A stretch of DNA of 24,000 bases from Actinomycetota bacterium (GCA_038254435.1 JBBSGD010000008.1:31412-55411), one strand, 5' to 3'; positions 508 through 16,920 are shown, numbered from the stretch's first letter. Made by a program: numbers and translations. The notes: generated by a model from the sequence alone, not told the origin.

Positions 508-1571
508 GTCGCGTAGCTCTCCAGAAGGCTCTCGACGTAACAGGCAGCCTTTGTCGCTCCATTTCCAGGCGCGAGGGCTGTCAACGCCGGAGGCGCACCC
601 GGTCGGGATGCTTCGATGAGGAGTCGCTTCCATTCGGAGGGTGCGGGCCAATCGAACAAGACCTTGGCTGCTCCGATCCGGCAGAGACACCGCGCTTTGC
701 GCACCTGTTCGTCGAAGGGCATCTCCTCGGGGATGCATATCAATGGTCTTTGTGCGGCTGCCACTTCCATGACCGTATTGTCGCCTGCACTTGCAACAAC
801 CACGTCCGCCGCCCTGATGTGATCCAGGGTGTCCCGGACCCACCCCTCGACTCTGAGATTGCGACTGCCTGAGGCCGGACCTTTCTTACCAACGACAAGC
901 CACTGCCAGTCTGGGCAGGCTTGCGCGGCCTCGGTCACGGCATGAGGAACCCCTGCGCCTCCGGCGCCGGAAAGGACCGTAACGCAGGGCCCGTCCGGGA
1001 GATCCAGTCTCGTGCGGGCGACCTTGCGATCGGGCATAGAGACATCGTCGTAACGACTCATTCCTCCCGCGTAAACGGTCTTGTTCGCTATCCACTGCGG
1101 GGTCGCAGGATCCTCGAGCGAAGCAGGCCAAGGGGCAAGAAGCCCGGATGCTAGCTGATACGCATCGAGATGTGCGTGGTCGAACCTGTTCCCGTGCTGT
1201 CTCACGATGACTGAAGGAGTTCCGGTCAATCGCGCTAGTCGGGCGATTTCGACGGAGACATCAATGAGCATCAGAGCCGGCTGGTTACATGCGATCCAGC
1301 CGGTAATCGTCGAGACTCGTTCTCTTAAGCCTCTTACACCGAAAGGCGCGTAATGAAGCGGTGCATCTCGTAGTTCGGTCTCTTGCCACTCGTGACCGGG
1401 AACATCATCGTCCATCGGGAGCACTGCGGTTTGGAAGCCCGGGCACGACTCGACTCGGCGCGAAGTAAAGAGCGTTGCCGGAGACCGGAGGTGGGCGCCA
1501 ATAAGGGCTGCGCGCTGCACGTGACCTGCTCCACGATGATGTGCGTACCAGGCGAGAATCTTCTCCACCAT
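504..1571 (-). CDS. MurG-like / GT28 C-terminal-domain glycosyltransferase
   Basis: 355-aa ORF with an ATG start. The C-terminal part VVASAGDNTVMEVAAAQRPLICIPEEMPFDEQVRKA matches the Glyco_tran_28_C pattern. Its start overlaps the upstream stop (TAATG at 1569-1573). Confidence 0.8.
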   Translation of the reverse strand: MVEKILAWYAHHRGAGHVQRAALIGAHLRSPATLFTSRRVESCPGFQTAVLPMDDDVPGHEWQETELRDAPLHYAPFGVRGLRERVSTITGWIACNQPALMLIDVSVEIARLARLTGTPSVIVRQHGNRFDHAHLDAYQLASGLLAPWPASLEDPATPQWIANKTVYAGGMSRYDDVSMPDRKVARTRLDLPDGPCVTVLSGAGGAGVPHAVTEAAQACPDWQWLVVGKKGPASGSRNLRVEGWVRDTLDHIRAADVVVASAGDNTVMEVAAAQRPLICIPEEMPFDEQVRKARCLCRIGAAKVLFDWPAPSEWKRLLIEASRPGAPPALTALAPGNGATKAACYVESLLESYAT

Positions 1572-5362: not shown

Positions 5363-5461
5363 GAAGATGACATTGTAGGAGCTGCCGCATTCCTGGTCCT
5401 CCCTCACGTCGATTTCTGGCCGAGCCAAGGCGACCGCGCGACGCTCCGCTTGGGGCACTTG

Positions 5462-5477
5462 TGTCAGACGGCTGACA
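5462..5477. promoter_or_regulatory. TGTCA-N6-TGACA inverted repeat, a candidate Crp/Fnr-type operator in the divergent intergenic region
   Basis: The sequence tgTGTCAgacggcTGACAtt sits 100 nt upstream of ATG 5362. It has the same architecture as the CRP-class consensus TGTGA-N6-TCACA. A 5+5 palindrome is expected many times by chance in 24 kb, so only its position supports it. Confidence 0.3.
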
Positions 5478-5588
5478 TTGTCGGGAACGCCCACCCCTCG
5501 TGACGGGTTCGCCCAGGCGCAATCATCCCGCCGCTTCGCAGTCCGAGCGGGTGAGAAGCGTCTCGGTCGGGCGGTCTGAGGAATGAGG

Positions 5589-5822
5589 ATGGCAAACACA
5601 ACCGCGCGAGGGCGTAAGACGCGCTCGTTGCGCCGGGATCACCAACCTACTTTCGGGACCCGCAGGAGAAGGTGGGTCGCGTCGATCATGGGCGGCATCG
5701 TCGTGGTCGGGGGTTTCACCTTCTTTTTTTCTAACCGGCTCGGCGGGCGGGAGGGTTTCGGTATCGGGTCATGCGACGTGGCTCCTTTGATCGTCCCCTT
5801 TTGTCGTAGGAAGGAGCCATGA
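5589..5822 (+). CDS. hypothetical small membrane protein (basic N-terminus + one TM helix)
   Basis: ATG 5589 has GAGGA about 7 nt upstream, and there is also an ATG at 5583. The predicted TM segment is WVASIMGGIVVVGGFTFFF. The stop overlaps the SRPBCC start (ATGA at 5819-5822). I recognise no homology. Confidence 0.3.
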   Translation: MANTTARGRKTRSLRRDHQPTFGTRRRRWVASIMGGIVVVGGFTFFFSNRLGGREGFGIGSCDVAPLIVPFCRRKEP

Positions 5823-6319
5823 GGACCCGGCCGATTGGGCTGAAGCGGCAGCGCGTCCCGGTCTCGGCGCCGCGGTCGCTCACCTTCGAGGTCGTGGCAA
5901 GCGCCGGCAAGTCACTCGAGGAGCGGCCGGACGGCGCCAAGGTCGTGCAGTTCTCCACCACCTTCCGGGGTAAGGAGGTCCCCACCACGGAGCTGGTCGT
6001 TATCGAGCCGCCTGACCACATCCGTTACGAATGGCTCCAGGGTCCGCTGCCCGAGGTGAACGAGATCATTTCCTTCATCGACAACGGCGAGGGGACCGAG
6101 CTGGTCTACGAGGGAGATTTCTCCGCGGGGCCGGGGCTCATCAATTGGGTCTACGGACGGCTGGTGGTCAAGCCGATATTCGACAGGCTTGTCCTGAAGC
6201 ACCTCGAACAGAGCAAATGCATGGCAGAGCAGAGGGCGAGGAGAACCCGGGTCCACCCCGGCCCCACCGCCGACGACTCCAGCAACCACTCCCTGCCTAG
6301 GTCACAGCCCACCACCTGA
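5819..6319 (+). CDS. SRPBCC (START/polyketide-cyclase-like) family protein
   Basis: ATG is preceded by GGAAGGAG. The pattern VPVSAPRSLTFEVVA...IRYEWLQGPLPEVNEIISFIDNGEGTELVYEGDF...VVKPIFDRLVLKHLEQ is typical of Polyketide_cyc2/SRPBCC folds. Confidence 0.7.
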   Translation: MRTRPIGLKRQRVPVSAPRSLTFEVVASAGKSLEERPDGAKVVQFSTTFRGKEVPTTELVVIEPPDHIRYEWLQGPLPEVNEIISFIDNGEGTELVYEGDFSAGPGLINWVYGRLVVKPIFDRLVLKHLEQSKCMAEQRARRTRVHPGPTADDSSNHSLPRSQPTT

Positions 6320-6354
6320 GCCCGACCTCCCCTCCTCACGAGCGCGTTGCGTGC

Positions 6355-7143
6355 TCAAGCTCTCGTCGCGCTGAACAGCTTGTAGCCGAGCACGCCGTCT
6401 CCGACCGCCTCTATGCCAAGAGAGACCAGGTCGCGCCCCACCTTTAAGGCTTCCGGTCGGAGGCCGGGCCGCAGGGCGTCGAGATCGATCCCTCCAGCTC
6501 TAACGACCATCTCGGCTAAAGCCAAACGGCGGCGCACCTGCTCGAGCAGGCCGCCGAGCTCGTAGTCGAGCGACACGCTCCTCGGGTCCCCGAAGCCGGC
6601 CTCGCCCAAGAGGCTTTCGTATCCGGAACTCCCAAGCGCCCCGCCGACGCACGCGCTCCACGAAACAAGCGGGTCGAGCGGCAGCGGCAGCTCGCCCTCA
6701 AGCGTCACATCCGACAAGGCGATGCGGCCCCCCTTTCGCACAACTCGGTGCAGCTCGCCGAGCGCGGCTGCCTTGTCCGGAACGAGCGACAGGACACACT
6801 CGGCAATGGCGCCGTCCAACGACGCGGGTCGCAGAGGGAGGTTCTCCGCCGCTCCCACCGCCGCGACGCTCGTCTCGGAGGCGACCTTCACGGCATCCGG
6901 TGCGAGATCGATCCCGACCGGGACCATACCGGCGTCGGCGAGCGAGCGGACGCCGAAGCCGCCTCCGCAGCCCAGGTCGAGCACGAGGGAACCGCGTGCA
7001 AGCGCGAGGTCCTCCACGGTCGCGGCCGTCGTTCGTTCACCGCCGGGATGCATCCGCTCGCCGAGCAGGAGGTGTGCCAGAGGGTGGCTCCACACCGAGC
7101 AGCAGGTGCGGCGCAGAACGGCTTTTTCGGGGGCCTCGATCAT
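6355..7143 (-). CDS. ArsM-like class I SAM-dependent methyltransferase
   Basis: The SAM motif is VLDLGCGGGFG. DGAIAECVLSLVPDKAAALGELHRVVRKGGRIALSDV resembles ArsM 'D.VISNCVINLS.DK...RVLKPGGR.A.SDV'. SWSACVGGAL...YESLLGEAGF resembles ArsM 'W.GC.AGAL...Y...L..AGF'. There is an N-terminal CC pair (RTCCSVW). ATG 7143 overlaps the upstream TGA (ATGA). Confidence 0.85.
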   Translation of the reverse strand: MIEAPEKAVLRRTCCSVWSHPLAHLLLGERMHPGGERTTAATVEDLALARGSLVLDLGCGGGFGVRSLADAGMVPVGIDLAPDAVKVASETSVAAVGAAENLPLRPASLDGAIAECVLSLVPDKAAALGELHRVVRKGGRIALSDVTLEGELPLPLDPLVSWSACVGGALGSSGYESLLGEAGFGDPRSVSLDYELGGLLEQVRRRLALAEMVVRAGGIDLDALRPGLRPEALKVGRDLVSLGIEAVGDGVLGYKLFSATRA

Positions 7144-8618
7144 GTCATCGGTAGTTCGCTCGCCGCGGGCCGGGCCCTACGCCCTGGCGCGAACCGGTGC
7201 AGGGTGTTGTAGACGCAGAAGGGGATGATGCGCCCATCGGGGAGCGCCTCCTGGATGCAGCAGCGCTTGGCGCGTGAGACGTCGAAGTTGTGGCGGTCCA
7301 TGAACGCCTCGATGGTGATCGAGAACAGGCTGCCCACCACCTCGGAAGAATCGAGCTCCATGATCGGCCCGCAAGCGCAGGCGAAAGCGGCCGCCTGTCC
7401 CTGCGATCCCGCCGGGTTGGACTTCGAATAGAGCTGTTCCAGGGTGGCGCGCATCTCCGCGAAGTCCGACTCGAAGGCCGGAGTGAGGACCGGAAGAGCG
7501 GCATTGGAGACGTAATCGAGGTAGTCCTCGACCTCGACCATGCGCGGCAGCGGCATGACCTCGGCCCCGTTGGTCCACGCATAAGTCGCCGCCGTGCACA
7601 TCGGGTCACAGCAAGGGATGGGGATGAAGTCGGACTTGAGAAAGGTTCCTCCCGTCTGGTGCTCGACGGCATCGATCACGTCGGTAACCGTCGTGCGATC
7701 CATCGGGTCGAAGGGGACCCACCGGCCCTCACCGAACTGCGGCTGGAAGCTGACCGCCCGCACCGCCGGGTGGTCGAGGCCGAGCTGGATGATCGCTCCG
7801 ATCTCGTGATCGTTGACGCCCTTGGCGATGGTGGCGACGAGAACGACCGGAACCCCGGCCCGCCCGAGCTGATCGAGAGCTTCGAGCTTGACCCCGAGCA
7901 GGTCGGCGCGGTCGCGCATCGCCTCCAGCGAAGATGCCTCGAAGCCATCGAACTGAAGGTAGACCTTGACGCCGAGCTCGCCGGCGAGCTCGCAAACCCG
8001 CCGGTCGCGCCCGAAGCGGATCCCGTTTGAGTTGACCACCGTGTGCTTGACTTTCCCGCTGCCTGCCACCAGCGCCATGACCTCGCCGAAGCGGGGGTGG
8101 ATCGTTGGCTCCCCGCCTGACAGCATTACGACGTCGGCCGGGCCTCCTTCCGCCGCCACGACCGCATCGAGCATCGCCTCGATCTCGTCGAGCGAGGCAT
8201 GGGAGCCGTGCGGGCTCGCGGCGAAGCACGCGGGGCATTCGAGGTTGCAGGCCTGGGTGATCTCCAGCAGGGTCACGCAGGCGTGCTGCTCGTGCTCGGG
8301 GCAGAAGCCGCAGTCGTAGGGGCAGCCGTGCTCGGTTTCTGTCGCGGTGTGTACGGGTGCTCGCCCCGGTCGTTTGAACTTGCGGCTCCAGCGATACCAG
8401 GAGGCATCCGAGCAGGTCAGAACGGAGTGCTTCCCGTGCTCGGGGCAGTGCTTCACCATGAGGATCCGCCCGGCGGACTCGACGATGTCGGCGGGAACCA
8501 GACGCTTGCAGTGAGAGCAGAGGGAGTCGGTGTGGCTTATGAGGGCGGCCGGGGCACCTTCTCGAACCTGTTGCGTCACCGTAAAAGCCCCCTTTTCGAC
8601 CTCTTGATCACCCGTCAC
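7140..8618 (-). CDS. radical SAM enzyme with N-terminal rubredoxin-like Cys motifs (COG1964 / tetraether-synthase-like architecture)
   Basis: The CxxxCxxC motif is CNLECPAC, followed by SGGEPT. The N-terminus has CSHC...MVKHCPEHG and GCPYDCGFCPEHEQHAC. The C-terminus has IPIPCCDPMC and FMDRHNFDVSRAKRCCIQ...IPFCVYN. The start is GTG 8618, or GTG 8579 with AAGGGGG about 8 nt upstream. Confidence 0.9.
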   Translation of the reverse strand: MTGDQEVEKGAFTVTQQVREGAPAALISHTDSLCSHCKRLVPADIVESAGRILMVKHCPEHGKHSVLTCSDASWYRWSRKFKRPGRAPVHTATETEHGCPYDCGFCPEHEQHACVTLLEITQACNLECPACFAASPHGSHASLDEIEAMLDAVVAAEGGPADVVMLSGGEPTIHPRFGEVMALVAGSGKVKHTVVNSNGIRFGRDRRVCELAGELGVKVYLQFDGFEASSLEAMRDRADLLGVKLEALDQLGRAGVPVVLVATIAKGVNDHEIGAIIQLGLDHPAVRAVSFQPQFGEGRWVPFDPMDRTTVTDVIDAVEHQTGGTFLKSDFIPIPCCDPMCTAATYAWTNGAEVMPLPRMVEVEDYLDYVSNAALPVLTPAFESDFAEMRATLEQLYSKSNPAGSQGQAAAFACACGPIMELDSSEVVGSLFSITIEAFMDRHNFDVSRAKRCCIQEALPDGRIIPFCVYNTLHRFAPGRRARPAASELPMT

Positions 8619-8658: not shown

Positions 8659-9351
8659 TTGGTAGAGCCCGGTAACCTCATCGCCTTCAGACCGGTTCGG
8701 AGTGTCTGCTCGCTTACAGAGGTTGGCCCGAATGCTATCGGCGAGGGGGGTTCCCACGGGAGGGATCTCGAGATAGGGAAGGGTACAGTCATCGGCGAGG
8801 CGACGTGGGACCGAGCGGCCCGCTTCTATCGGTTGCAGCAAACCCTCGAACGTCCCTCCCTTGGTGCTGCCGCAGCGCTTAGCGCGGTCGAGTCGCATCA
8901 CAGGCTGCTGGACCTCGGAACGGGAACCGGGGCCGTTCTGGCCGAGTTCGCGTCGGCGCGGCGGCGTCTTCGCCTCGCCGTCGGGGTCGAGCTTTCTCCG
9001 CAGATGTTGATCCGCGCTAAGAGGAGGCATGCCGGGCATCTAATCCGAGCCGACGCCGGCACTCTGCCTTTCGATGATGGCTCCTTTGACGTTGTGGTCG
9101 CGGCCTGGACGGTGAAGCGCTCGGATGCTGATGTCACCGTCTCGATGTGCGCCGAGGAGGTGTGTCCGCTCACACCCGGCGTCCGGCGGATCAGCTGGGA
9201 CTTACCGGATCCCAAGAGCCTACGGATCGAGCAGGTGAGGGAGATCCGCGACGATATCGGTGCCGCGTTGAGGCGCTCCTCGCTCAACTGGACGGTAGAG
9301 CTGCGCAGTCTAGAGGGCGAGTCGCACCCCCATAGGAAGAAGGCAACGTGA
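8659..9351 (+). pseudogene. chimeric relic: 5' part of a class I methyltransferase fused in frame to the 3' part of an LMW-PTP-type arsenate reductase (ArsC)
   Basis: Residues to about 152 carry RLLDLGTGTGAVL...LSPQMLIRA...LPFDDGSFDVVVAAW (methyltransferase motifs I-II only). From about nt 9115 the frame reads ADVTVSMCAEEVCPLTPGVRRISWDLPDP...VREIRDDIGAAL. This aligns with the B. subtilis ArsC C-terminus (ADLVVTLCGDAADKCPMTP...HWGFDDP...VRDEIGNRL). The catalytic CTGNSCRS N-terminus is absent. Confidence 0.6.
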
Positions 9352-9390: not shown

Positions 9391-10647
9391 TCACCGCCCG
9401 GCGATGGCCGTGTGCGGGTGAAAGGCAGCCCAGGCGAACCAGAAGGCAGTCTCTTGGGCGACGGGCTGCAGGCTCGCACCGGCGAGAGGCCCGGACACGA
9501 TCCGGCCGAACATGTTGATGCGTCCTCCGGTCCGGTCATCCACGAACCCATCATCACTTGCCCGGACCTCGACGAGGCGCCCACGTGCCCTCGCCGCCCA
9601 CACCGTTGCCGACCAGCTTTGGGGACCGGCGTCCACGAGCCGGGACGTCTCCGGTTGGTGGACGCCGAAGTGGAACAGAGCCACCAGCGCACGGCCATCG
9701 AGTCGCGCGTGCTCAACCACCCGGCCTTGCCCGTGCGACGGAAACGGAAAGGCGACGGAACCCGAACGGCCGGCGACACCGATAACCCTCGTCTTGGGCG
9801 GGAGCCGAGGGTCCGTGTATGAACGCAGCGACGAATCCGGCGACGGCCTGAAGAAGATGCTGTCCTGAGACGCGTCCGACCCATAGCCCGCATAGGGATC
9901 GGTCCGATAGCTCGCGTTGGAGCGGGGCGGCGCGAGCACCTTGCCCGCGGGATGCGCTCGCTTCCATGCGCCGAAGGGAACCGTCAGAGCGAGAATGGGC
10001 TTGAGGCGGCGCCCGGTCTCGGAACCGCTCAAGGGGCGACCGCTTATCTGGCTCCACAGTGAAAGGGTCTCGAAATCGAACATGACGAGGTTGGCGTGGA
10101 AGAGCTCGCCTGAAACTCCGAAGCTGAGGGTGCGACCACCGGCCGTTCTCGAGTAAGCGACCCCGCTGTTGCACAGCGGACAGTAGGAGACAACCACAGG
10201 ACGACCGCCGACGACGTCGTTGACGACCTCGTGGTAGAGGAGGATTCTGACCGGATAAGCGCGCGCGTCACCGTGGATCGAGACGGAGATGACTAGGTCG
10301 GCCCGGTTGAGGTAGCCGGCGTCGCGGGCCGCTTGGAATGTGGGGTGGCGGATCGCAGGTATCGAGTTGAAGGGCACGCAGAAGGCCCCCACCCCCTGGG
10401 AGATGGCGGCGGTGTTATGGGCCGGAGTGCAGGTCTGCTGCGTGACCCGCTCCAGCCGGTGCAGCCGAGAGCGGGGACTTTGCCGCCCACGATCCCCAAG
10501 TGGTCGCGAATCCCGGGCAGCTGGTCCCAGGGCCACCGATCTGGAAGCGTCGGACGGGCCCCGGGCGCCCGGCGGCAGAGAGCCTCCCGCAGAGGTGCAG
10601 GCGGCCACCAAGAGGACAGATCCGACACAGGCGGCCGCGAGTTTCAT
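9391..10647 (-). CDS. DUF3179 domain-containing lipoprotein
   Basis: ATG 10647 overlaps the anti-sigma stop (ATGA). The signal is MKLAAACVGSVLLVAAC with a lipobox. The DUF3179 core is ARAYPVRILLYHEVVNDVVGGRPVVVSYCPLCNSGVAYSR...SFGVSGELFHANLVMFDFETLSLWSQ. The track start at 10764 is a longer upstream extension. Confidence 0.85.
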   Translation of the reverse strand: MKLAAACVGSVLLVAACTSAGGSLPPGARGPSDASRSVALGPAARDSRPLGDRGRQSPRSRLHRLERVTQQTCTPAHNTAAISQGVGAFCVPFNSIPAIRHPTFQAARDAGYLNRADLVISVSIHGDARAYPVRILLYHEVVNDVVGGRPVVVSYCPLCNSGVAYSRTAGGRTLSFGVSGELFHANLVMFDFETLSLWSQISGRPLSGSETGRRLKPILALTVPFGAWKRAHPAGKVLAPPRSNASYRTDPYAGYGSDASQDSIFFRPSPDSSLRSYTDPRLPPKTRVIGVAGRSGSVAFPFPSHGQGRVVEHARLDGRALVALFHFGVHQPETSRLVDAGPQSWSATVWAARARGRLVEVRASDDGFVDDRTGGRINMFGRIVSGPLAGASLQPVAQETAFWFAWAAFHPHTAIAGR

Positions 10648-11330
10648 CTCAACTTCAATCGCGCCGCGGCCCTGTCCACGTCGCGCGCGTCGTCGCCTAT
10701 CACGAGGGAGGACACCGGTCGCGGCGCGCAGTAGAGAACTGCCTCCCCGAGCGTCGCCGTCCATGTTTCCTCAGAGGCGAGGTGGACCGCTCCGTTTGCC
10801 GTCGGAAACGGTCCGTCGGCGCGGTAGACGACGAGGTGATGCCCGGCGTGGTCCCGATACTTGTAGGCGACGAGCCTAAGCCCGCCGATCTCGCCTTGGC
10901 GCGCCCCGCGCAGCACCAGGTCGCCGATGTGCTGCGGCAGCTTTGGAGTCGCGGCACGGACCAGCACCCGTTGGCCTCGGTAGTCCGTCAGGACCGCTTG
11001 GATGACCGCCGGCTGATGAGTGGATGCCTGCCACCAATAGCCAAGGCCGGCGAGAGACATCACCATGGCCATGGCTGTGGCCAGCAGGACGAGATGGCGC
11101 CGGCGGGCGGGATGCTCCACGCCGGCGACCACGGTGCGAACCCGTTCCTTGAGGAACTGTGGGGCGAGCTCCCGGGCTGATTCCGCCAAGCTTCGGCCGC
11201 GCCGCGCCACTTGCACCTCGTTCCAGCAGTCCTCGCACTCGAGCATGTGACGCTCGAAGGCCCGCCGTCGGCGCGCCCCCATCAGGCCCGCAAGGTAGGT
11301 GGCGGCGTTGCGTTCCGGCTCATGTGCCAT
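10644..11330 (-). CDS. membrane-anchored anti-sigma factor with zf-HC2 (ZAS) motif
   Basis: The N-terminus FERHMLECEDCWNEV carries H-x3-C-x2-C. There is a single TM helix, LVLLATAMAMVMSLAGLGYWW. It lies directly downstream of the ECF sigma gene and overlaps it by 11 nt. Confidence 0.8.
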   Translation of the reverse strand: MAHEPERNAATYLAGLMGARRRRAFERHMLECEDCWNEVQVARRGRSLAESARELAPQFLKERVRTVVAGVEHPARRRHLVLLATAMAMVMSLAGLGYWWQASTHQPAVIQAVLTDYRGQRVLVRAATPKLPQHIGDLVLRGARQGEIGGLRLVAYKYRDHAGHHLVVYRADGPFPTANGAVHLASEETWTATLGEAVLYCAPRPVSSLVIGDDARDVDRAAARLKLR

Positions 11331-11841
11331 ATTCGTTCACCTCGCTCGCCAGGAGCGCGGCCAGCCTCTTGCGCCCCCGGTGCACACGCGACAAGACGGT
11401 GCCCCGCGGCGAGCCCGTGAGCTTGGCTACCTCCAGCGCGGTCAGACCCGCCAGGTCCATGAGGGTGATCGCCACCCGCTGTTCCTCCGGGAGCTGCCAC
11501 AGGGCCTCGTGCACGACGGTACGGCGGAGGGCCGCGATCGCTTCATCGGCCGCGTCGACATCCTCGTGGGGCCAGCGGACCTCTTGCACCGGCGTCTCGT
11601 AGCGGTAGGCCGCCCTGCGCAGGAGGCTCCGGCCCGCATTGAGGCAGATGGTCGCGATCCACGGCTCCACCCGGCGTGGGCGCCGATTGGTCGTCCACGC
11701 TTGGAAAGCCTTGAGGTACGTCTCCTGCACCAGGTCCTCGACGTCTTGCTGATTGCGCGCGAGTCGCCGAGCGAGGTTGTATACGAGGTCCAGTGCCGGC
11801 AGCGTCGCGTTGAGAAACTCGTCCGCAGGACGCGTCTTCAT
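11320..11841 (-). CDS. ECF-type RNA polymerase sigma-70 family factor
   Basis: Region 2 is DVEDLVQETYLKAFQAW. Region 4 is TLMDLAGLTALEVAKLTGSPRGTVLSRVHRGRKRL. ATG 11841 forms an ATGA overlap with the upstream stop. The track start at 11880 is a TTG. Confidence 0.9.
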   Translation of the reverse strand: MKTRPADEFLNATLPALDLVYNLARRLARNQQDVEDLVQETYLKAFQAWTTNRRPRRVEPWIATICLNAGRSLLRRAAYRYETPVQEVRWPHEDVDAADEAIAALRRTVVHEALWQLPEEQRVAITLMDLAGLTALEVAKLTGSPRGTVLSRVHRGRKRLAALLASEVNEYGT

Positions 11842-13058
11842 CCCCGCCACACCTTGGTGTCGGGATGGAAGGCGGCCCAATCAAACCAGAACGAGTCCGT
11901 CGCGTTCGCCGACCGGAGCTGCGTGCCCTTAAACCGCCCCGAGATCGCACGGCCGAAGATGTTCCAGGCGCTGTGCGTCCTTTCGTCGACGAGCCGGCCT
12001 CGGACCGATGCGAATCGAAGCGGCCTTCCCTTCACGAGGGGGCGGAAGGCAGCCGCCGCGCCGACGCGCTTGGAGGTAGCGATAGTCGGTGCGTCCAGGG
12101 CCGAAGCCGCGCCCCTCTTCCACACGACGAGGGCCGAGCGGCCGGCGACGTGCGTGTTGATCGCCGCGACCCCGTTCCTCGCTCGTGCCGCGAGAGCTGC
12201 GTATGGGAACGCAACGTAACTGCGGCCTGCGGACACCCCGAGTACCCGGTCGACCGCCTCGAGCCGGCCGTCGGTAGGTCCCTCGAACAAGAACGGAGGA
12301 TTGTTGACGTTGTCGTAGCCCGGGTAGGGGTTGTTTGCGTACGGTCGATCAAACCCGGTGGCGCGCGTCAGCACGCGGCCGTCTGGAAAGGAGGCCTCGA
12401 AGTCGGCCCACGCGACGATGCGTGCCGGCACCCGCTTCAGAAGCGCTCCCTTGAGCGACCCGGCAACCGCCTGCCCGAGGGCTTGCGGCCACAACGAATC
12501 GGTGGCTCGATCGTACATGACGAGGTTCGAGTGGTAGAGACTTCCCGAGGTCCCGAAGGTCGTCGCAGTGCCCTTGACGGTGGGGCGGACGTATGCCAAA
12601 GCCGTGTTGCACAGCGGGCAGAAGGTCACGGCCACCGGGGTCCCGCCCACGACGTCGTTTACGATCTCATGCCACGTCATGATCTCGAGTGGGTAAGCGC
12701 GGGCCTCGCCGCCGACCTCGATCTCGACAACAGGCTCTTGCGGCTTCAGGAAATCGATCTCTGCGACCGGGGCGAGGTCCGGTTGGTCCAGTGCGGGAAT
12801 GGAGTCCTTGGAGACCACGGCCCGGATGTTCGAGGGCGACACCGTGACTCGTATGTGCCGGGTGACAAGGCCTCGCACGTCCCCTGAAGATGCCGTCGTG
12901 TGTGCCTCGCCGGCCGAGCGTTGCGAGGAAGGCTGCCCGCCGGGAACGACGGCTAGGGCCACAATGACCGTGGCGGCAACGGCCAGTCCTGCAACGATCC
13001 CAAGGAGGCGCCGCTTGCGCCGGCCCAACACCCAGTTCGGCTTGCCCGTGGGGCCCAT
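11838..13058 (-). CDS. DUF3179 domain-containing protein with N-terminal signal anchor
   Basis: The core is ARAYPLEIMTWHEIVNDVVGGTPVAVTFCPLCNTALAYVR...FGTSGSLYHSNLVMYDRATDSLWPQ. The TM segment is LLGIVAGLAVAATVIVALAVV. ATG 13058 shares 1 nt with the TlpA stop (TGATG). The track start at 13061 is a TTG. Confidence 0.85.
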   Translation of the reverse strand: MGPTGKPNWVLGRRKRRLLGIVAGLAVAATVIVALAVVPGGQPSSQRSAGEAHTTASSGDVRGLVTRHIRVTVSPSNIRAVVSKDSIPALDQPDLAPVAEIDFLKPQEPVVEIEVGGEARAYPLEIMTWHEIVNDVVGGTPVAVTFCPLCNTALAYVRPTVKGTATTFGTSGSLYHSNLVMYDRATDSLWPQALGQAVAGSLKGALLKRVPARIVAWADFEASFPDGRVLTRATGFDRPYANNPYPGYDNVNNPPFLFEGPTDGRLEAVDRVLGVSAGRSYVAFPYAALAARARNGVAAINTHVAGRSALVVWKRGAASALDAPTIATSKRVGAAAAFRPLVKGRPLRFASVRGRLVDERTHSAWNIFGRAISGRFKGTQLRSANATDSFWFDWAAFHPDTKVWRG

Positions 13059-13642
13059 CAACCGATCCCGAAAGCCTCGTGAATCCTTTGGCGCAGGAGC
13101 CCGGCCGTGAGCTGTCCGGTGACTTCGTCGACGACTCTGCCGCGGGCATCGATGAATACGGTCGTGGGCATGCCGGTGCCGCCGAAGGCGTCGAAGACCC
13201 GGCCCTGCGGATCGGATGCGAGGCGATAGCGGACACCGGTCTGGGCCGCGAGGCGGTCCGCTCCATCGCGGCTGTCGCGCTGATCGATGCCCACGAACGC
13301 CACTTCGTTGCCGAGTGTCTGGAACTCACGCTGGAATGCGGGCATCTCCGCGGCGCAGTTTGGGCACCACGACGCCCAGAAGTTGAGGACGAGCGGCCTG
13401 CCCTTGTATGCGGCCAGCGAGAACCGTTTGCCCTCGAAGTCGATCAACGACACGCGCGGCGCCGGTTGCCCGCCTACCTGCACCCCTTTGTCGGAGCCTC
13501 CGAAGAGCAGGAATCCGAGACCGGCAAGGCCGGCGATGACGACGACCGTGACGGCGGCCCTCATCCTCGTTTGCTTGGGTTGAACGAGATGCCGCGGGGG
13601 CTTGCGGGAGCTAGCCTTGCGCCGTCTCTTGTCGTCGCCCAT
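13058..13642 (-). CDS. TlpA/ResA-family thiol-disulfide oxidoreductase (membrane-anchored thioredoxin fold)
   Basis: The motif is LVLNFWASWCPNCAAEMPAF (WCxxC). The signal anchor is AAVTVVVIAGLAGLGFLLF. ATG 13642 has GAGAGAAGGA upstream. The track start at 13756 is a GTG with no better support. Confidence 0.9.
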   Translation of the reverse strand: MGDDKRRRKASSRKPPRHLVQPKQTRMRAAVTVVVIAGLAGLGFLLFGGSDKGVQVGGQPAPRVSLIDFEGKRFSLAAYKGRPLVLNFWASWCPNCAAEMPAFQREFQTLGNEVAFVGIDQRDSRDGADRLAAQTGVRYRLASDPQGRVFDAFGGTGMPTTVFIDARGRVVDEVTGQLTAGLLRQRIHEAFGIG

Positions 13643-13756
13643 GCGAATCCTTCTCTCGGTTTTGGCGCACTCGGCGATCCTGACATCGCTGACTCTCTTA
13701 GGGACGCCCCCGACCGGCTTCTGATTGCCTCGCGCTCCCGACTGAGAGGCAATCAC

Positions 13757-13795
13757 GGAACCGGAAGGGGCGTCCTAGAAGGATGTAACGGTTCC
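13757..13795. promoter_or_regulatory. GGAACCG ... CGGTTCC inverted repeat (7-bp arms, 25-nt spacer) in the TlpA/CcdA divergent intergenic region; candidate ECF -35 elements or operator
   Basis: The sequence is GGAACCGgaaggggcgtcctagaaggatgtaaCGGTTCC. It places a GGAAC pentamer (the common ECF -35 core) on both strands between the divergent starts 13642 and 13838. I could not identify a convincing -10 (CGT) at canonical spacing. Confidence 0.25.
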
Positions 13796-13837
13796 CGGGC
13801 TAAGTGGGCACCGTGGCGTGAAAGAGAGGAGCTCTGG

Positions 13838-14716
13838 GTGCCACCGTTGGAAATCGCCCTTGTCGCCGGAGGGCTCTCGACAGTCAATCCGTGCGGTTTC
13901 GCCCTCTTGCCTGCCTTCTTGTCGCTCTATGTCGGAGCCGACGAGGCGCGTCTTCCCGGCGGGGCGACCCGAGTGATGCAGGGTCTGCTGGTGGGCCTCG
14001 TCGTGACTGGGGGCTTCCTAACCACTTTCGGGGCCATCGGTCTTCCGCTCGTCCTCGGCGCCGGCCGCGTCGTGGATGCCATCCCCTGGGCTGGCTTGAC
14101 CATGGGGGTGGCTCTGGTTGTCATGGGGACGGTTCTCCTCGCCGGGGGCCATGCATCGATCACGCTAAGGAGCCCGGTAACCGTGCACCGAGACCGCCGG
14201 CTGGCGACGGTCTACCTCTTTGGAGTGGGCTACGGAGCGGCATCGCTCGGGTGTGCGCTCCCGGTCCTGCTCGCCGTGGTGGGCGCGTCCCTGGCCGGCC
14301 ACGGCGTGATCGCCTCGCTTCAGGTCTTGGCCTTCTACGCGGCCGGGATGGGGCTCGTGCTCATGGCCTTGTCTGTGTCGGCAGCCCTGCTTCGGGACGG
14401 ATTGGCGAGAAGGCTAAAGTCGATACTTCCCTATTCTCAGCGCATAGCAGGGGCGCTCCTCACCGTGACGGGGGCCTACCTCGGCTATTACTGGTGGCGC
14501 GTGCGGTTCGGCGATATCGCCACGCTCGGGCGCGACCCGCTCGTGAGCAGCGTCGAGCGACTTACCGCATTCGTGCAACGGTTGTCCTCCACCGCGGGGA
14601 GGTGGATCATCTTGGGTGCCGCCGTGCTGGTAGCGGGCGCTCTCTTATCGGCATCATGGCGCCGGCGCAGCAACGGCCCCGACCAAGGGCCCCGCACCGG
14701 GAGACCCCGGGCTTGA
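13838..14716 (+). CDS. ccdA: CcdA/DsbD-family cytochrome c biogenesis-type transmembrane thiol:disulfide electron transporter
   Basis: GTG 13838 has GAGAGGAG 5 nt upstream. The conserved Cys motifs are STVNPCGFALLPAF and AASLGCALPVLLAV, in a multi-TM protein. The upstream 253 codons of track ORF 13079-14716 are antisense to tlpA and are not coding. Confidence 0.9.
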   Translation: MPPLEIALVAGGLSTVNPCGFALLPAFLSLYVGADEARLPGGATRVMQGLLVGLVVTGGFLTTFGAIGLPLVLGAGRVVDAIPWAGLTMGVALVVMGTVLLAGGHASITLRSPVTVHRDRRLATVYLFGVGYGAASLGCALPVLLAVVGASLAGHGVIASLQVLAFYAAGMGLVLMALSVSAALLRDGLARRLKSILPYSQRIAGALLTVTGAYLGYYWWRVRFGDIATLGRDPLVSSVERLTAFVQRLSSTAGRWIILGAAVLVAGALLSASWRRRSNGPDQGPRTGRPRA

Positions 14717-14897
14717 TTGTCGCTGTGCGGCGCTTGTGGTCGCGGGCGCTGCCTCGACTCGGTTTAGCAAGCCGCAAACTCGGCCGTAGAGCCCGGTAGT
14801 GCGACGTGAGTCGGCCGGCGGGATTTGTCCCATCGACGAGATCGGTCTATTCTTCACGTGAAAATAGGGGAAATCGCTCGTGAGGATGTGATGACAC

Positions 14898-15608
14898 GTG
14901 AGGCTCGCCTCTACAGCCGTGCGAACAGCCGACCCATATCGGGACATCGACGTCATAGACGCCCGGGCCCCTCGGCTCAACCAGGCGACCGTGGGGATAC
15001 TCAGCCTCGTGGCCGTCCTGACCGGGTGGTGGTGGCTCCTCGGGCTGCTCGCCGTGCAGTTGATCGCGGGGCTGACCCTCGGTCGCAAGTTCTGTCTTCC
15101 GTGCGTCTTCTATTTCGAGGTAGTGCAGCCGCGCATCGGCGAGGGCGAGATCGAGGACTCACGGCCCCCGAGGTTCGCCAACATCCTCGGTTCCGTATTC
15201 CTCGGCGCGGCCACACTGGCCCACCTTGTCAATCTCAGCACGCTCGGCTGGGTGCTTGGCGGGATCGTGGCGGCGTTGGCGCTAGTCGCGGCGGCTACCG
15301 GTCTCTGCGTCGGCTGCGAGCTCTACCGCGCGGTGGCGCGCGCCCGCGGCGTTAGGTCGGGGGAAGTGAGAGCCGTCGATCTCGCAGAGCTCGGGGTCAC
15401 GCCGGGAGACGAGATCGTGGTGCAGTTCACCCACCCACTGTGTACCGAGTGTCGGGACCTAGAAACAAGGCTCACCGCGTCGCGGCGGCGTCTGGTTTCG
15501 GTGGACGTCTCCAAGCGGCCCGACATAGCCCACAGATACCACGTCTCCGTCGTCCCCGCCGCATTCAGTGTCGACCGCGAGGGCACCGTCCTGGAGAGAC
15601 TCGCCTAA
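14898..15608 (+). CDS. DUF4395 membrane domain fused to a C-terminal thioredoxin/glutaredoxin-like CxxC domain
   Basis: The start is GTG. The DUF4395 pattern is APRLNQATVGILSLVAVLTGWWWLL...GRKFCLPCVFY...PPRFANILGSVFLG...ATGLCVGCELY. The C-terminus is IVVQFTHPLCTECRDLE...DIAHRYHVSVVPAAFSVDREGTV (CTEC motif, Trx-like). Confidence 0.8.
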   Translation: MRLASTAVRTADPYRDIDVIDARAPRLNQATVGILSLVAVLTGWWWLLGLLAVQLIAGLTLGRKFCLPCVFYFEVVQPRIGEGEIEDSRPPRFANILGSVFLGAATLAHLVNLSTLGWVLGGIVAALALVAAATGLCVGCELYRAVARARGVRSGEVRAVDLAELGVTPGDEIVVQFTHPLCTECRDLETRLTASRRRLVSVDVSKRPDIAHRYHVSVVPAAFSVDREGTVLERLA

Positions 15609-16095: not shown

Positions 16096-16920
16096 TCATC
16101 GCTTGACGATCTTGACGAGCTGCAATGACTCGATGGGGTGTCCCTTCGCCGTCATCTCCTTTACCTCTCCGATGTCGCGCACGTAGTACTTGTGGTCGCG
16201 GATGTTGGGCTCGAGGGGTGTCCATTCCTTGGTGAGCTCCACGTTCCGGTTCAGCTTGTTCGCGCCGAAGTGCCCATACGGCACTTTGATCTCGGCCGCG
16301 AGGCTCATCACCCGGTAGTGATCTTCTGCATGGTGCCTGTAGAATTCCTGGCGGTACGTGTGGCCGACCTGAGGGTTCGCTTCCATGAAGATCCCGGCCT
16401 CGGCTCCGTTCCTTCCGGTTCTCCAGCTCCCCTCTGTGCTAGTCACGTGGCCGTTCTTGTCGAGTTCCGCGGTGTTCTCACCGAAGTACCAGACATTGCC
16501 GTCCTCGTCCTGTGTGTAGTAGTCGCGTGTTCTCTCCGCGAGCCGGCCGTTGAGGTAAACCTTGTCCTTGACGACTCTGCACCGAACTCCGACGATCGTA
16601 GTCACCTGATTGGTCACGCTCAATACATCGCGCGAGCGCGTCGCTCCCTCGGCACCTCGGTAGATGTAAGTGATGCCGGGCTTGAGTGGGTACCAAGCGT
16701 TATCGATGCGAGTGGTGAAGTTGGCAGGATCGTACTTTGGAGAAAGACGAGGCTTGACCGGCTGCATCTTGGCGCGTCCTGGAGCATGCACTGATCGCTG
16801 TGCTAAGACCCGTGAGACTCCAACTCCGAGAAGTCCCACGGCCAGAGCTCCCGCAAGCATGGCACTACCCAGTTTGACAATCGTCCACCCTGTCTGGTGG
16901 CCTTTAGATGTGAACCTCAT
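16096..16920 (-). CDS. hypothetical membrane-anchored/secreted protein (no domain recognised)
   Basis: ATG 16920 has GAGGAGG 7 nt upstream. The N-terminal anchor is LGSAMLAGALAVGLLGVGV. Coding-like composition runs throughout, for example DNAWYPLKPGITYIYRG...DGNVWYFGENT...GSWRTGRNGAEAGIFM...EWTPLEPNIRDHKYYVRDIGEV. Confidence 0.75.
   Translation of the reverse strand: MRFTSKGHQTGWTIVKLGSAMLAGALAVGLLGVGVSRVLAQRSVHAPGRAKMQPVKPRLSPKYDPANFTTRIDNAWYPLKPGITYIYRGAEGATRSRDVLSVTNQVTTIVGVRCRVVKDKVYLNGRLAERTRDYYTQDEDGNVWYFGENTAELDKNGHVTSTEGSWRTGRNGAEAGIFMEANPQVGHTYRQEFYRHHAEDHYRVMSLAAEIKVPYGHFGANKLNRNVELTKEWTPLEPNIRDHKYYVRDIGEVKEMTAKGHPIESLQLVKIVKR

Follow-up and report, generated by a model that had tools for sequence, protein, structure and literature searches.

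The membrane-anchored TlpA of Bradyrhizobium reduces the cysteine pair of the exported proteins ScoI and CoxB at their copper sites, the Sco client providing two cysteines and one histidine. Extracellular reducing pathways have also been described in Streptococcus pneumoniae, in which they are formed by CcdA, Etrx and MsrAB2 (PMC3914529). In Mycobacterium tuberculosis, the regulon of the sigma factor SigK and its anti-sigma factor RskA is given as mpt70, mpt83 and dipZ in PMC5547695 (citing Veyrier 2008), and redox-sensitive cysteines have been put forward for the SigK/RskA pair. Here we analyse a locus with comparable components in a 24,000-nucleotide stretch of DNA from an Actinomycetota bacterium (GCA_038254435.1, JBBSGD010000008.1:31412-55411), called the window throughout. 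At positions 9391–15608, it encodes two proteins of the DUF3179 family, a TlpA-like redoxin, a CcdA-like membrane protein, an extracytoplasmic function (ECF) sigma factor with its anti-sigma factor, and a DUF4395–thioredoxin (Trx) fusion.

DUF3179 is a very large protein family, widespread in soil, groundwater and marine bacteria and often a selenoprotein, with no assigned function or solved structure. It is listed as a predicted UxxC/T selenoprotein family, U being selenocysteine, abbreviated Sec below (PMC9312934, PMC13188914). In the literature that we searched on DUF3179/PF11376 and DUF4395/PF14340, only selenoprotein catalogues and incidental mentions were found.

We propose, at a probability of about 0.6, that the locus encodes a dedicated extracytoplasmic reducing pathway in which the two DUF3179 proteins would be the terminal acceptors, and which in this clade would be autoregulated through the ECF pair. 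A first-pass annotation of the window had already put DUF3179 forward as the dedicated client or effector of a CcdA–TlpA relay. Support for this comes from gene fusions in both orders, a triple fusion, synteny across phyla and the occurrence of Sec at the first cysteine of the CPLC motif. The seven genes of that annotation, its four start/stop overlaps and all the cysteine motifs it quoted are present where it had placed them.

DUF3179, redoxin and CcdA-like proteins are linked across phyla

Five genes on the minus strand and two on the plus strand were confirmed at the locus by open reading frame (ORF) listing, Pfam and NCBIfam scans and gene calls on the source contig, a metagenome contig of 52–63 kb with identical proteins. 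In relatives, several of their products occur as fused proteins. Fusions were counted among close homologues of DUF3179 (n=120) and among representatives at 50% identity (n=150): redoxin–DUF3179 fusions account for 5 of the close homologues, and fusions are found in 6 of the representatives. The redoxin comes first in P0007, P0044, P0066, P0099, P0111 and P0241. The reverse order is seen in P0249 and in single ORFs of three Chloroflexota genomes (L054, L065, L082), two of which carry a CcdA-like gene after the fused ORF. Two further architectures are longer. P0242 reads redoxin–DUF3179–DUF3179, the equivalent of this operon's TlpA and two DUF3179 proteins joined in one chain; P0305 is a triple fusion, DsbD_TM–redoxin–DUF3179. 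The architectures of P0241, P0249 and P0305 were confirmed by Pfam, and both CPxC motifs are retained in every fusion.

Synteny was assessed at 80 DUF3179 loci, one genome per species, from Chloroflexota, Actinomycetota, Proteobacteria, Bacteroidota, Gemmatimonadota, Spirochaetota and other phyla. These loci were searched with a 14-sequence alignment, a 74-sequence alignment being too diverse. As one pattern of that search was the CPLCN block, the set is biased to Cys forms, and cysteine conservation was therefore measured on phmmer representatives instead. Because gene calling in the flanks from length and third-codon-position GC content is noisy in high-GC DNA, the statistics are based on six-frame hidden Markov model matches.

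Both partners are enriched near DUF3179. Within 2.5 kb of it, a redoxin is encoded at 17 of the 80 loci and a CcdA-like protein at 13, with either of them present at 24 and both at 6; at distances of 4 kb or more in the same loci, the counts are 4 and 1 (Poisson P = 1e-6 and 2e-9, respectively). Pfam scans of 205 other neighbouring ORFs gave no other recurrent partner, the commonest being a Crp-type regulator (6 ORFs). Conversely, a search begun from a CcdA-like homologue leads back to a DUF3179–CcdA–redoxin arrangement (L215). Cytochrome c maturation genes are absent from the roughly 21 kb of the source contig that were read around the operon, which thus contains no competing client of this kind, and ResB/CcsA-type genes are absent from the locus. 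A role of this TlpA/CcdA pair in cytochrome c maturation was rejected for want of such genes in the locus.

Conservation, selenocysteine and fold of DUF3179

The two DUF3179 proteins match PF11376 (cut-off 27 bits) over its full length, from profile position 1 or 3 to position 292 of 292. DUF3179-1 (9391–10647, minus strand; 418 amino acids; 2.2e-79, 267.4 bits) is a predicted lipoprotein with the lipobox LVAAC, and carries CPLC at 10171–10182 and HEVVND at 10216–10233. DUF3179-2 (11838–13058, minus strand; 406 amino acids; 2.4e-100, 336.2 bits) is its signal-anchored paralogue, with CPLC at 12609–12620, HEIVND at 12654–12671 and an anchor made of RRKRR and a hydrophobic segment. These signals agree with the export that had been predicted for both. 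The motifs of the CPLC block, HEVVNDVVGGRPVVVSYCPLCN and HEIVNDVVGGTPVAVTFCPLCN, belong to the two DUF3179 proteins; in the whole of DUF3179-2, the CPLC residues C147 and C150 are the only cysteines. As the window paralogues are only 33% identical to each other, their split must be ancient. Each has its own orthologue in the related locus L211, at 57% identity for DUF3179-1, whose orthologue is placed there after the CcdA-like gene, and at 60% for the other.

The family comprises 10,356 representative clusters (50% identity, E ≤ 1e-3). Among 74 diverse representatives, residues P123, W190, G200 and G369 are invariant, and H130, E131, N134, D135, C147, P148, L149 and C150 are conserved in at least 90%. 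The individual counts are 72 for the histidine, 69 for the glutamate, 73 for the asparagine, 70 for the aspartate, 68 for C147 and 67 for C150. Variants of the CxxT and SxxC type occur as well.

We scanned metagenomes with the pattern HExxND-N33-TGA-CCN-YTN-TGY, which gave at least 120 matching stretches, and fetched 80 of these loci (L085–L164). In 79 of them, a TGA codon stands at the position of C147 with DUF3179 homology on both sides (E 1e-40 to 1e-157). About 16 nt after the in-frame TGA lies a hairpin of 7 bp, for example ACGGGCAUCGUGUAUGCCCG, with a CGUGU-like loop and compensatory changes in its stem. The mean folding z-score of the 48 nt that follow the UGA is −1.25, against −0.12 in the Cys forms (Mann-Whitney P = 2.5e-8). 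The hairpin is consistent with a bacterial selenocysteine insertion sequence (SECIS) element. Sec forms mostly read TWUPLC and Cys forms (Y/F)CPLC; both DUF3179 genes of the window have TGY at this position, and are thus Cys forms that fall outside the Sec subfamily. The repeated presence of Sec at C147, taken together with the CxxT and SxxC variants, argues for a reactive nucleophile at this residue rather than a buried structural ligand. It is at odds with the poorly conserved cysteines or buried structural site that the first-pass annotation had named as grounds for abandoning the client role.

In an AlphaFold2 (AF2) model, DUF3179-2 is almost all-β (predicted local distance difference test score, pLDDT, 95.9; predicted template modelling score 0.93). 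CPLC occupies a turn that connects two strands, and H130 and E131 end the helix before it. Aligned with each other, the two halves of the domain prove to be homologous (hhalign probability 99.6%, E=1.5e-23): DUF3179 consists of a β-module of about 140 amino acids repeated in tandem, of which only the N-terminal copy has kept HExxND and CPLC.

Neither sequence nor profile searches matched DUF3179 to an entry of the PDB, and Foldseek found no significant match to the AF2 model (all E ≥ 0.02). The weak Foldseek matches that recur are Rieske-fold and NirD structures (E ≥ 0.23, probability ≤ 0.75). The Rieske motif is CxH-x15-17-CxxH; with the spacing x-x-H-x16-C-x-x-C of DUF3179, only three of the four Rieske ligand positions are therefore filled. 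Neither the full CxH...CxxH ligand set nor a significant fold match, which would mark a Rieske-fold [2Fe-2S] protein, was found in DUF3179. The H-x16-CxxC spacing and the weak Foldseek matches together suggest a lead on a Rieske/NirD-like origin, and not a classification.

The TlpA-like and CcdA-like proteins

The TlpA/ResA-like redoxin (13058–13642, minus strand) matches AhpC-TSA (PF00578, 6.4e-23) and Redoxin (PF08534, 1.7e-22). A longer ORF of 232 amino acids would start from a GTG at 13756, which places its first codon before the promoter motif of tlpA itself; we take the true start to be the ATG at 13642, giving 194 amino acids, and an independent gene call agrees. The protein combines a Redoxin/AhpC-TSA fold, the motif WCPNC (CPNC at 13355–13366), as an instance of WCxxC, and a predicted membrane anchor, its N-terminus consisting of a strongly positive tail followed by a hydrophobic segment. 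Neither the ResA model NF002854 (91 bits, cut-off 170) nor the TlpA model NF047696 (63.7 bits, cut-off 230) is reached. By these scores it is a generic TlpA-like redoxin, an orthologue neither of TlpA (NF047696) nor of ResA (NF002854). It also weakly matches NF010625, the model of the MsrA/MsrB fusion, in the Trx domain at the N-terminus of that model.

The divergent gene at 13838–14716 (plus strand) encodes a CcdA-like protein of 292 amino acids, a putative membrane conduit for thiol electrons. It contains both NPCGF and SLGCALP, the motifs on which its CcdA-type identity had been based. This identity holds at the level of profile and fold, and failed at that of direct model matches: no Pfam match was obtained even at E ≤ 10, and no relevant NCBIfam match. 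There are 451 detectable homologues, most of them without Pfam annotation and some named CcdA family by NCBI and JGI. A profile of 24 homologues matches the Thermus CcdA structure 5VKV over residues 5–217 (E=1.4e-5) with both transmembrane cysteines, in PC...P and GC..P, aligned, and 9 of the 24 reach PF02683 (DsbD_TM) individually. For an AF2 model of the protein, moderately confident at pLDDT 71, the top Foldseek match is again 5VKV (probability 1.00, TM 0.59, E 0.049). Residues C19 (codon from 13892) and C139 (codon from 14252) are invariant. Because of the profile match, the PF02683 members, the fold match and the two invariant cysteines, the protein is probably a divergent CcdA-family conduit. 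Its subfamily has a conserved C-terminal extension (about residues 225–292) that is absent from the solved CcdA of 232 residues; the C-terminal part contains invariant Y217, Y218, W219, D233 and P234 as well as a seventh hydrophobic helix.

ECF sigma factor, anti-sigma factor and promoter motif

The minus-strand genes are chained by overlaps, as a direct reading of the sequence shows. tlpA and DUF3179-2 share 1 nt in TGATG (GGTTGATGG), DUF3179-2 and the sigma gene overlap by ATGA (GGGGATGAAG), the sigma and anti-sigma genes by 11 nt (ATGGCACATGA), and the anti-sigma gene and DUF3179-1 again by ATGA (AGATGAAA). The ECF (group 4) sigma factor (11320–11841, minus strand; 173 amino acids) consists of regions 2 and 4 only (Sigma70_r2, 2e-13; Sigma70_r4_2, 4.4e-12) and scores 77.1 bits on the sigma70-ECF model TIGR02937, above the cut-off of 42.9. 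All specific equivalog models stay below their cut-offs, the best matches being SigM- and SigH-like.

The anti-sigma factor (10644–11330, minus strand; 228 amino acids) spans the membrane once, through a hydrophobic segment at residues 78–100. The HxxxCxxC motif ascribed to it, typical of zinc-associated anti-sigma (ZAS) factors, is the cytoplasmic HMLECEDC (11226–11249): it is matched by zf-HC2 with 23.3 bits (cut-off 22.2) and is invariant in five orthologues. Residues H28, C32, C35 and C201 are unchanged in all five, C201 (codon from 10728) being the single invariant cysteine of the extracytoplasmic domain, where Y158, D160, H164, W190 and D213-D214 are invariant too. This domain may be an extracytoplasmic thiol sensor acting through C201. 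On the model of the redox-sensing RsrA, the protein scores 23 bits (cut-off 62.5); RsrA is soluble, whereas the window anti-sigma factor spans the membrane.

A dyad search of upstream regions identified the motif G(C/G)AATC-N17-GTCC, conserved in seven related loci with a fixed spacing of 17 nt; an earlier candidate for the ECF promoter, GGAAC-N17-CGCC, was dropped as not conserved. In the window, one exact match, GCAATC-N17-GTCC at 13702–13728 (minus strand), lies 59 nt upstream of the tlpA ATG, and a second, divergent copy at 13749–13775 (plus strand) lies 62 nt upstream of the GTG of the ccdA-like gene. This back-to-back arrangement before the two genes is also found in L211. A third exact GCAATC-N17-GTCC, at 836–862 (minus strand), falls within a glycosyltransferase-like gene (504–1571); it probably arose by chance or serves as a promoter inside the gene. 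Three matches in the window compare with 0.11 expected, and none of 100 shuffles reaches three. Nine non-redundant sigma-bearing loci contain 18 exact copies in 121 kb, for 0.4 expected; all other fetched loci contain two in 1,616 kb. The motif is present at every related locus carrying the cognate sigma factor except L059. The copies stand 30–120 nt upstream of tlpA, DUF3179, ccdA-like, sigma, DoxX or DUF7482 genes, the intragenic window copy apart. Conservation and placement of the motif are thus the signature of a small autoregulated ECF regulon that includes the ccdA-like gene, and the regulator pair sits inside its own regulon, as had been supposed. We infer that the promoter depends on the embedded sigma factor.

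In related Actinomycetota loci, the core TlpA–DUF3179–sigma–anti-sigma unit is kept and other genes relocate. The CcdA-like gene is found in a downstream operon in L002, and downstream of the core unit together with a radical S-adenosylmethionine (SAM) gene in L213; the divergent arm of L211 holds a CcdA-like gene, the second DUF3179 and DoxX, and in L214 DoxX is divergent to the core unit. In L007 and L009, the sigma/anti-sigma pair adjoins DUF3179, followed by a redoxin in L009 and with none near in L007. ECF control is not a general feature of DUF3179: a cognate pair is near DUF3179 in 3 of the 80 loci, with one further away in L006, and this control is confined to one Actinomycetota clade.

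Some neighbours recur in these loci. The motif precedes a gene for a DoxX-family membrane protein in L211 (524–1009, minus strand) and L214 (4278–4742, minus strand); this DoxX protein weakly resembles HvfX, a maturation protein of a Cu-binding ribosomally synthesized and post-translationally modified peptide. It also precedes a DUF7482 gene in L002 (5190–6323, plus strand) and L007 (1042–2184, plus strand; with a twin-arginine translocation lipoprotein signal). DoxX and DUF7482, both absent from the window, are likely further regulon members in the relatives. Class I flavoprotein disulfide reductases and ArsR-type regulators flank the module in L002 (1–3045), L213 (164–1525) and L215 (1–861). 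With about 315 bits each on the models of MerA and of lipoamide dehydrogenase, the flavoproteins stay below either cut-off. In L002, the gene next after the anti-sigma gene encodes a membrane protein of 260 amino acids with a weakly MerT-like N-terminus.

DUF4395–Trx and neighbouring genes

The second plus-strand gene (14898–15608) encodes a fusion of DUF4395 (PF14340, 1.6e-29, 103 bits) with a Trx-like domain, 236 amino acids in total, whose membership in the module is doubtful. The motifs CLPC, CVGC and CTEC are present, and their six cysteines do not vary among 31 homologues. The thioredoxin half reaches 22.2 bits against a Pfam cut-off of 23.5; some homologues carry PF00085. The fusion is strongly conserved in Actinomycetota (65–75% identity; 7,235 matches). 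From the distribution of lysine and arginine residues, its N-terminus, the loop 63–92 and the Trx-like domain are predicted to lie on the cytoplasmic side. The fusion is absent from all 80 other DUF3179 loci, and in two other lineages it adjoins an acyl-CoA-synthetase-like gene with no CcdA, TlpA or DUF3179 near. Its inclusion by the first-pass annotation in an extracytoplasmic module is not supported: all three CxxC motifs are predicted to be cytoplasmic, none of the 80 loci contains it, and its orthologues of about 70% identity stand beside unrelated genes. Charge distribution and lack of conserved synteny likewise led us to reject it as an extracytoplasmic component. No promoter motif precedes the gene itself, and the ccdA-like gene ends in a weak hairpin resembling a terminator; co-transcription with ccdA may occur by chance or in this lineage only. 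The fusion might conceivably donate electrons to CcdA from the cytoplasm, an idea that has no support here.

A short way downstream of the module, at 7140–8618 (minus strand), lies a gene whose product is a radical SAM protein carrying a zinc ribbon of the HMPTM type. Among NCBIfam models, the product scores best on TrsS, which is selenoprotein-associated (313 bits), and on the tetraether lipid synthase Tes (307 bits), and reaches neither cut-off. The gene overlaps the start of one for a DVU_1556/ArsM-like methyltransferase (6355–7143, minus strand). A similar radical SAM gene (5429–6850) lies directly 3' of the CcdA-like gene in L213, so that the adjacency recurs. No characterisation of TrsS or DVU_1556 was found in the literature searched.

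Between the radical SAM gene and DUF3179-1 lies an ORF of 230 amino acids (8659–9351, plus strand). The N-terminal two-thirds of its product are a class I methyltransferase, and the tail bears a weak likeness to the C-terminus of low-molecular-weight phosphatase/ArsC (PF01451, E=0.11); the ORF could be a fusion product or what is left of a frameshifted gene. On the other side of the module, a predicted exported protein of 274 amino acids (16096–16920, minus strand) has no Pfam or NCBIfam match; its gene falls in the lowest-GC kilobase of the window's central part (0.589, against about 0.66).

Proposed pathway and alternative explanations

In the pathway that we propose, electrons from the cytoplasm would cross the membrane via the two-cysteine CcdA-like protein and pass to the membrane-anchored TlpA-like redoxin, whose WCPNC disulfide they would reduce. 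The redoxin would in turn recycle the CPLC pair of the exported DUF3179 proteins. There, C147 (Sec in many relatives) would act as the nucleophile and C150 as the resolving residue, beside H-E-x-x-N-D in the β-hairpin turn. By analogy with CcdA–Etrx–MsrAB2, DUF3179 would most likely be a thiol/selenol-dependent reductase of an extracytoplasmic substrate. As for regulation, G(C/G)AATC-N17-GTCC would drive tlpA–DUF3179-2–sigma–anti-sigma–DUF3179-1, and its divergent copy the ccdA-like gene. The direction of electron flow, a direct contact between TlpA and DUF3179 and an enzymatic rather than metal-binding function of DUF3179 are what we infer from sequence data.

Several observations weigh against this proposal. 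In the AF2 model, CPLC occupies a β-hairpin knuckle, and not the N-terminus of a helix as in thioredoxin-fold enzymes. Three of the 74 representatives have neither cysteine, yet HExxND is kept. Some enzymes use Sec as a ligand for metal, and UxxC motifs are found in heavy-metal ATPases. Together, C147, C150 and H130 would give a set of two cysteines and one histidine like that of the Sco copper site. Finally, 56 of the 80 DUF3179 loci have neither a redoxin nor a CcdA-like gene adjacent, so that the partner may be encoded elsewhere or not always needed. The metal-related points lead to the most serious alternative: DUF3179 could resemble Sco in binding or chaperoning a thiophilic metal, such as Cu(I) or Hg(II), at a site formed by C147/C150/H130, and TlpA and CcdA would merely keep the ligand cysteines reduced for metal binding, as TlpA does for ScoI and CoxB. 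We regard this as unlikely, though by no means negligible. It would agree with CPxC in a hairpin turn, with H130 in 72 of 74 representatives, and with an H-x16-C-x-x-C spacing that mirrors that of Rieske proteins, along with the weak Rieske/NirD matches of probability up to 0.75; every Foldseek match, however, is non-significant (E ≥ 0.02). The neighbours in relatives also have a metal flavour, with ArsR-type regulators, MerA-like flavoproteins, a weakly MerT-like membrane protein and DoxX/HvfX-like proteins, and in L217 a CcdA-like/redoxin pair lies within a copper-ATPase/CopZ cluster; in the window itself, no metal transporter is encoded. The CxxT, UxxT and SxxC variants would lose a ligand but typify redox enzymes, and the other invariant residues, among them W190 and the NPY.GYD block, suggest a pocket larger than a chaperone needs.

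Two other explanations carry far less weight than a metal site. DUF3179 could contribute to signal input in the ECF system instead of being a metabolic effector: the anti-sigma factor would read its redox or ligand state with the extracytoplasmic domain, possibly via Cys201, and TlpA/CcdA would reset the sensor. The regulator pair is indeed embedded between the two paralogues and translationally coupled to them, and Cys201 is invariant in five orthologues with some 40 other residues of the sensor domain. But DUF3179 occurs with redoxin or CcdA in many phyla without an ECF pair, which is near it in only 3 of 80 loci, and a family of 10,356 clusters is far larger than this regulatory clade. We therefore judge the explanation improbable; if DUF3179 has any sensory part in ECF signalling, it would be as an addition particular to this clade. 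Alternatively, the cysteines could be structural, as a disulfide or a zinc site, and the clustering be coincidental, TlpA and CcdA serving other clients, for instance in cytochrome c or CuA maturation. Those are the classical tasks of TlpA, ResA and CcdA, a cytochrome c gene is next after the redoxin in L215, and 56 of the 80 loci have no redox neighbour. Coincidence is difficult to reconcile with independent fusions in two orders plus a triple fusion, or with the strong synteny enrichment, and structural cysteines with Sec replacing the first one in at least 79 homologues and with single-Cys variants; ResB/CcsA-type genes are missing from the locus as well. At this very low likelihood, the structural or bystander role is effectively excluded.

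Returning to the reducing pathway, we tentatively raise a wider claim, which we hold with less conviction than the pathway itself. DUF3179 could be a new class of extracytoplasmic Cys/Sec-dependent reductase, built on a tandem β-module maybe derived from a Rieske domain whose ligands became H...C(U)-x-x-C. With more than 10,000 clusters in Chloroflexota, Actinomycetota, Proteobacteria and other phyla, it would be a third major terminal branch of CcdA/TlpA relays, beside cytochrome c/CuA maturation and methionine sulfoxide repair. One actinobacterial clade would have placed it under a dedicated ECF regulon, with an anti-sigma factor that maybe senses the extracytoplasmic thiol state via its lone invariant cysteine.

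The placement of DUF3179 as terminal acceptor would give the family a concrete biochemical context and extend the known repertoire of extracytoplasmic thiol-reducing pathways. It also provides handles: a reactive residue (C147/Sec), a co-encoded TlpA domain as natural reductant, and a motif that defines co-regulated genes (DoxX, DUF7482). The function of a large orphan family thereby becomes directly testable.

Comparison with known systems

The CcdA/TlpA relay, the ECF/ZAS pair and DUF3179 as a possible selenoprotein are already known. The linkage of DUF3179 with TlpA and CcdA, its internal duplication, the fusion architectures, and the ECF regulon with its promoter were not found described in the literature that we searched. 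The published DUF3179 selenoproteins belong to the same Pfam family as the window proteins, which are Cys forms, and their Sec position corresponds to C147; PMC9312934 and PMC13188914 treat the family as predicted selenoprotein only, without partners, regulation or fold.

Like the Sco client of TlpA, DUF3179 conserves two cysteines and a histidine (C147, C150 and H130), which make a putative metal site. Unlike ScoI and CoxB, DUF3179 is not a Sco protein of thioredoxin fold and has no cytochrome oxidase genes nearby.

With SigK–RskA, the locus shares an actinobacterial ECF sigma factor and a membrane anti-sigma factor controlling a small regulon with a CcdA/thioredoxin-type reductant, there DipZ. 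It also shares two exported paralogues without assigned function, one of them a lipoprotein. MPT70 and MPT83 are of the FAS1 family; in contrast, the exported pair is DUF3179 here, the regulators lie inside the operon, and the window sigma factor, best matched by SigM- and SigH-like models, is below every specific equivalog cut-off.

The closest parallel in architecture is to CcdA–Etrx–MsrAB2. In both cases, CcdA conduit, TlpA-like thioredoxin with a membrane or lipid anchor, and Cys-dependent client at the cell surface (a putative client in the case of DUF3179) are encoded at one locus, and in other species the client is fused to a thioredoxin domain: the PilB protein of Neisseria is a related Trx–MsrA–MsrB fusion. 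The client differs, as DUF3179 has no sequence kinship to MsrA or MsrB and matches none of the solved structures significantly. Finally, two ancient DUF3179 paralogues take the place of the MsrA/MsrB pair, and the operon carries its own embedded ECF sigma/anti-sigma control.

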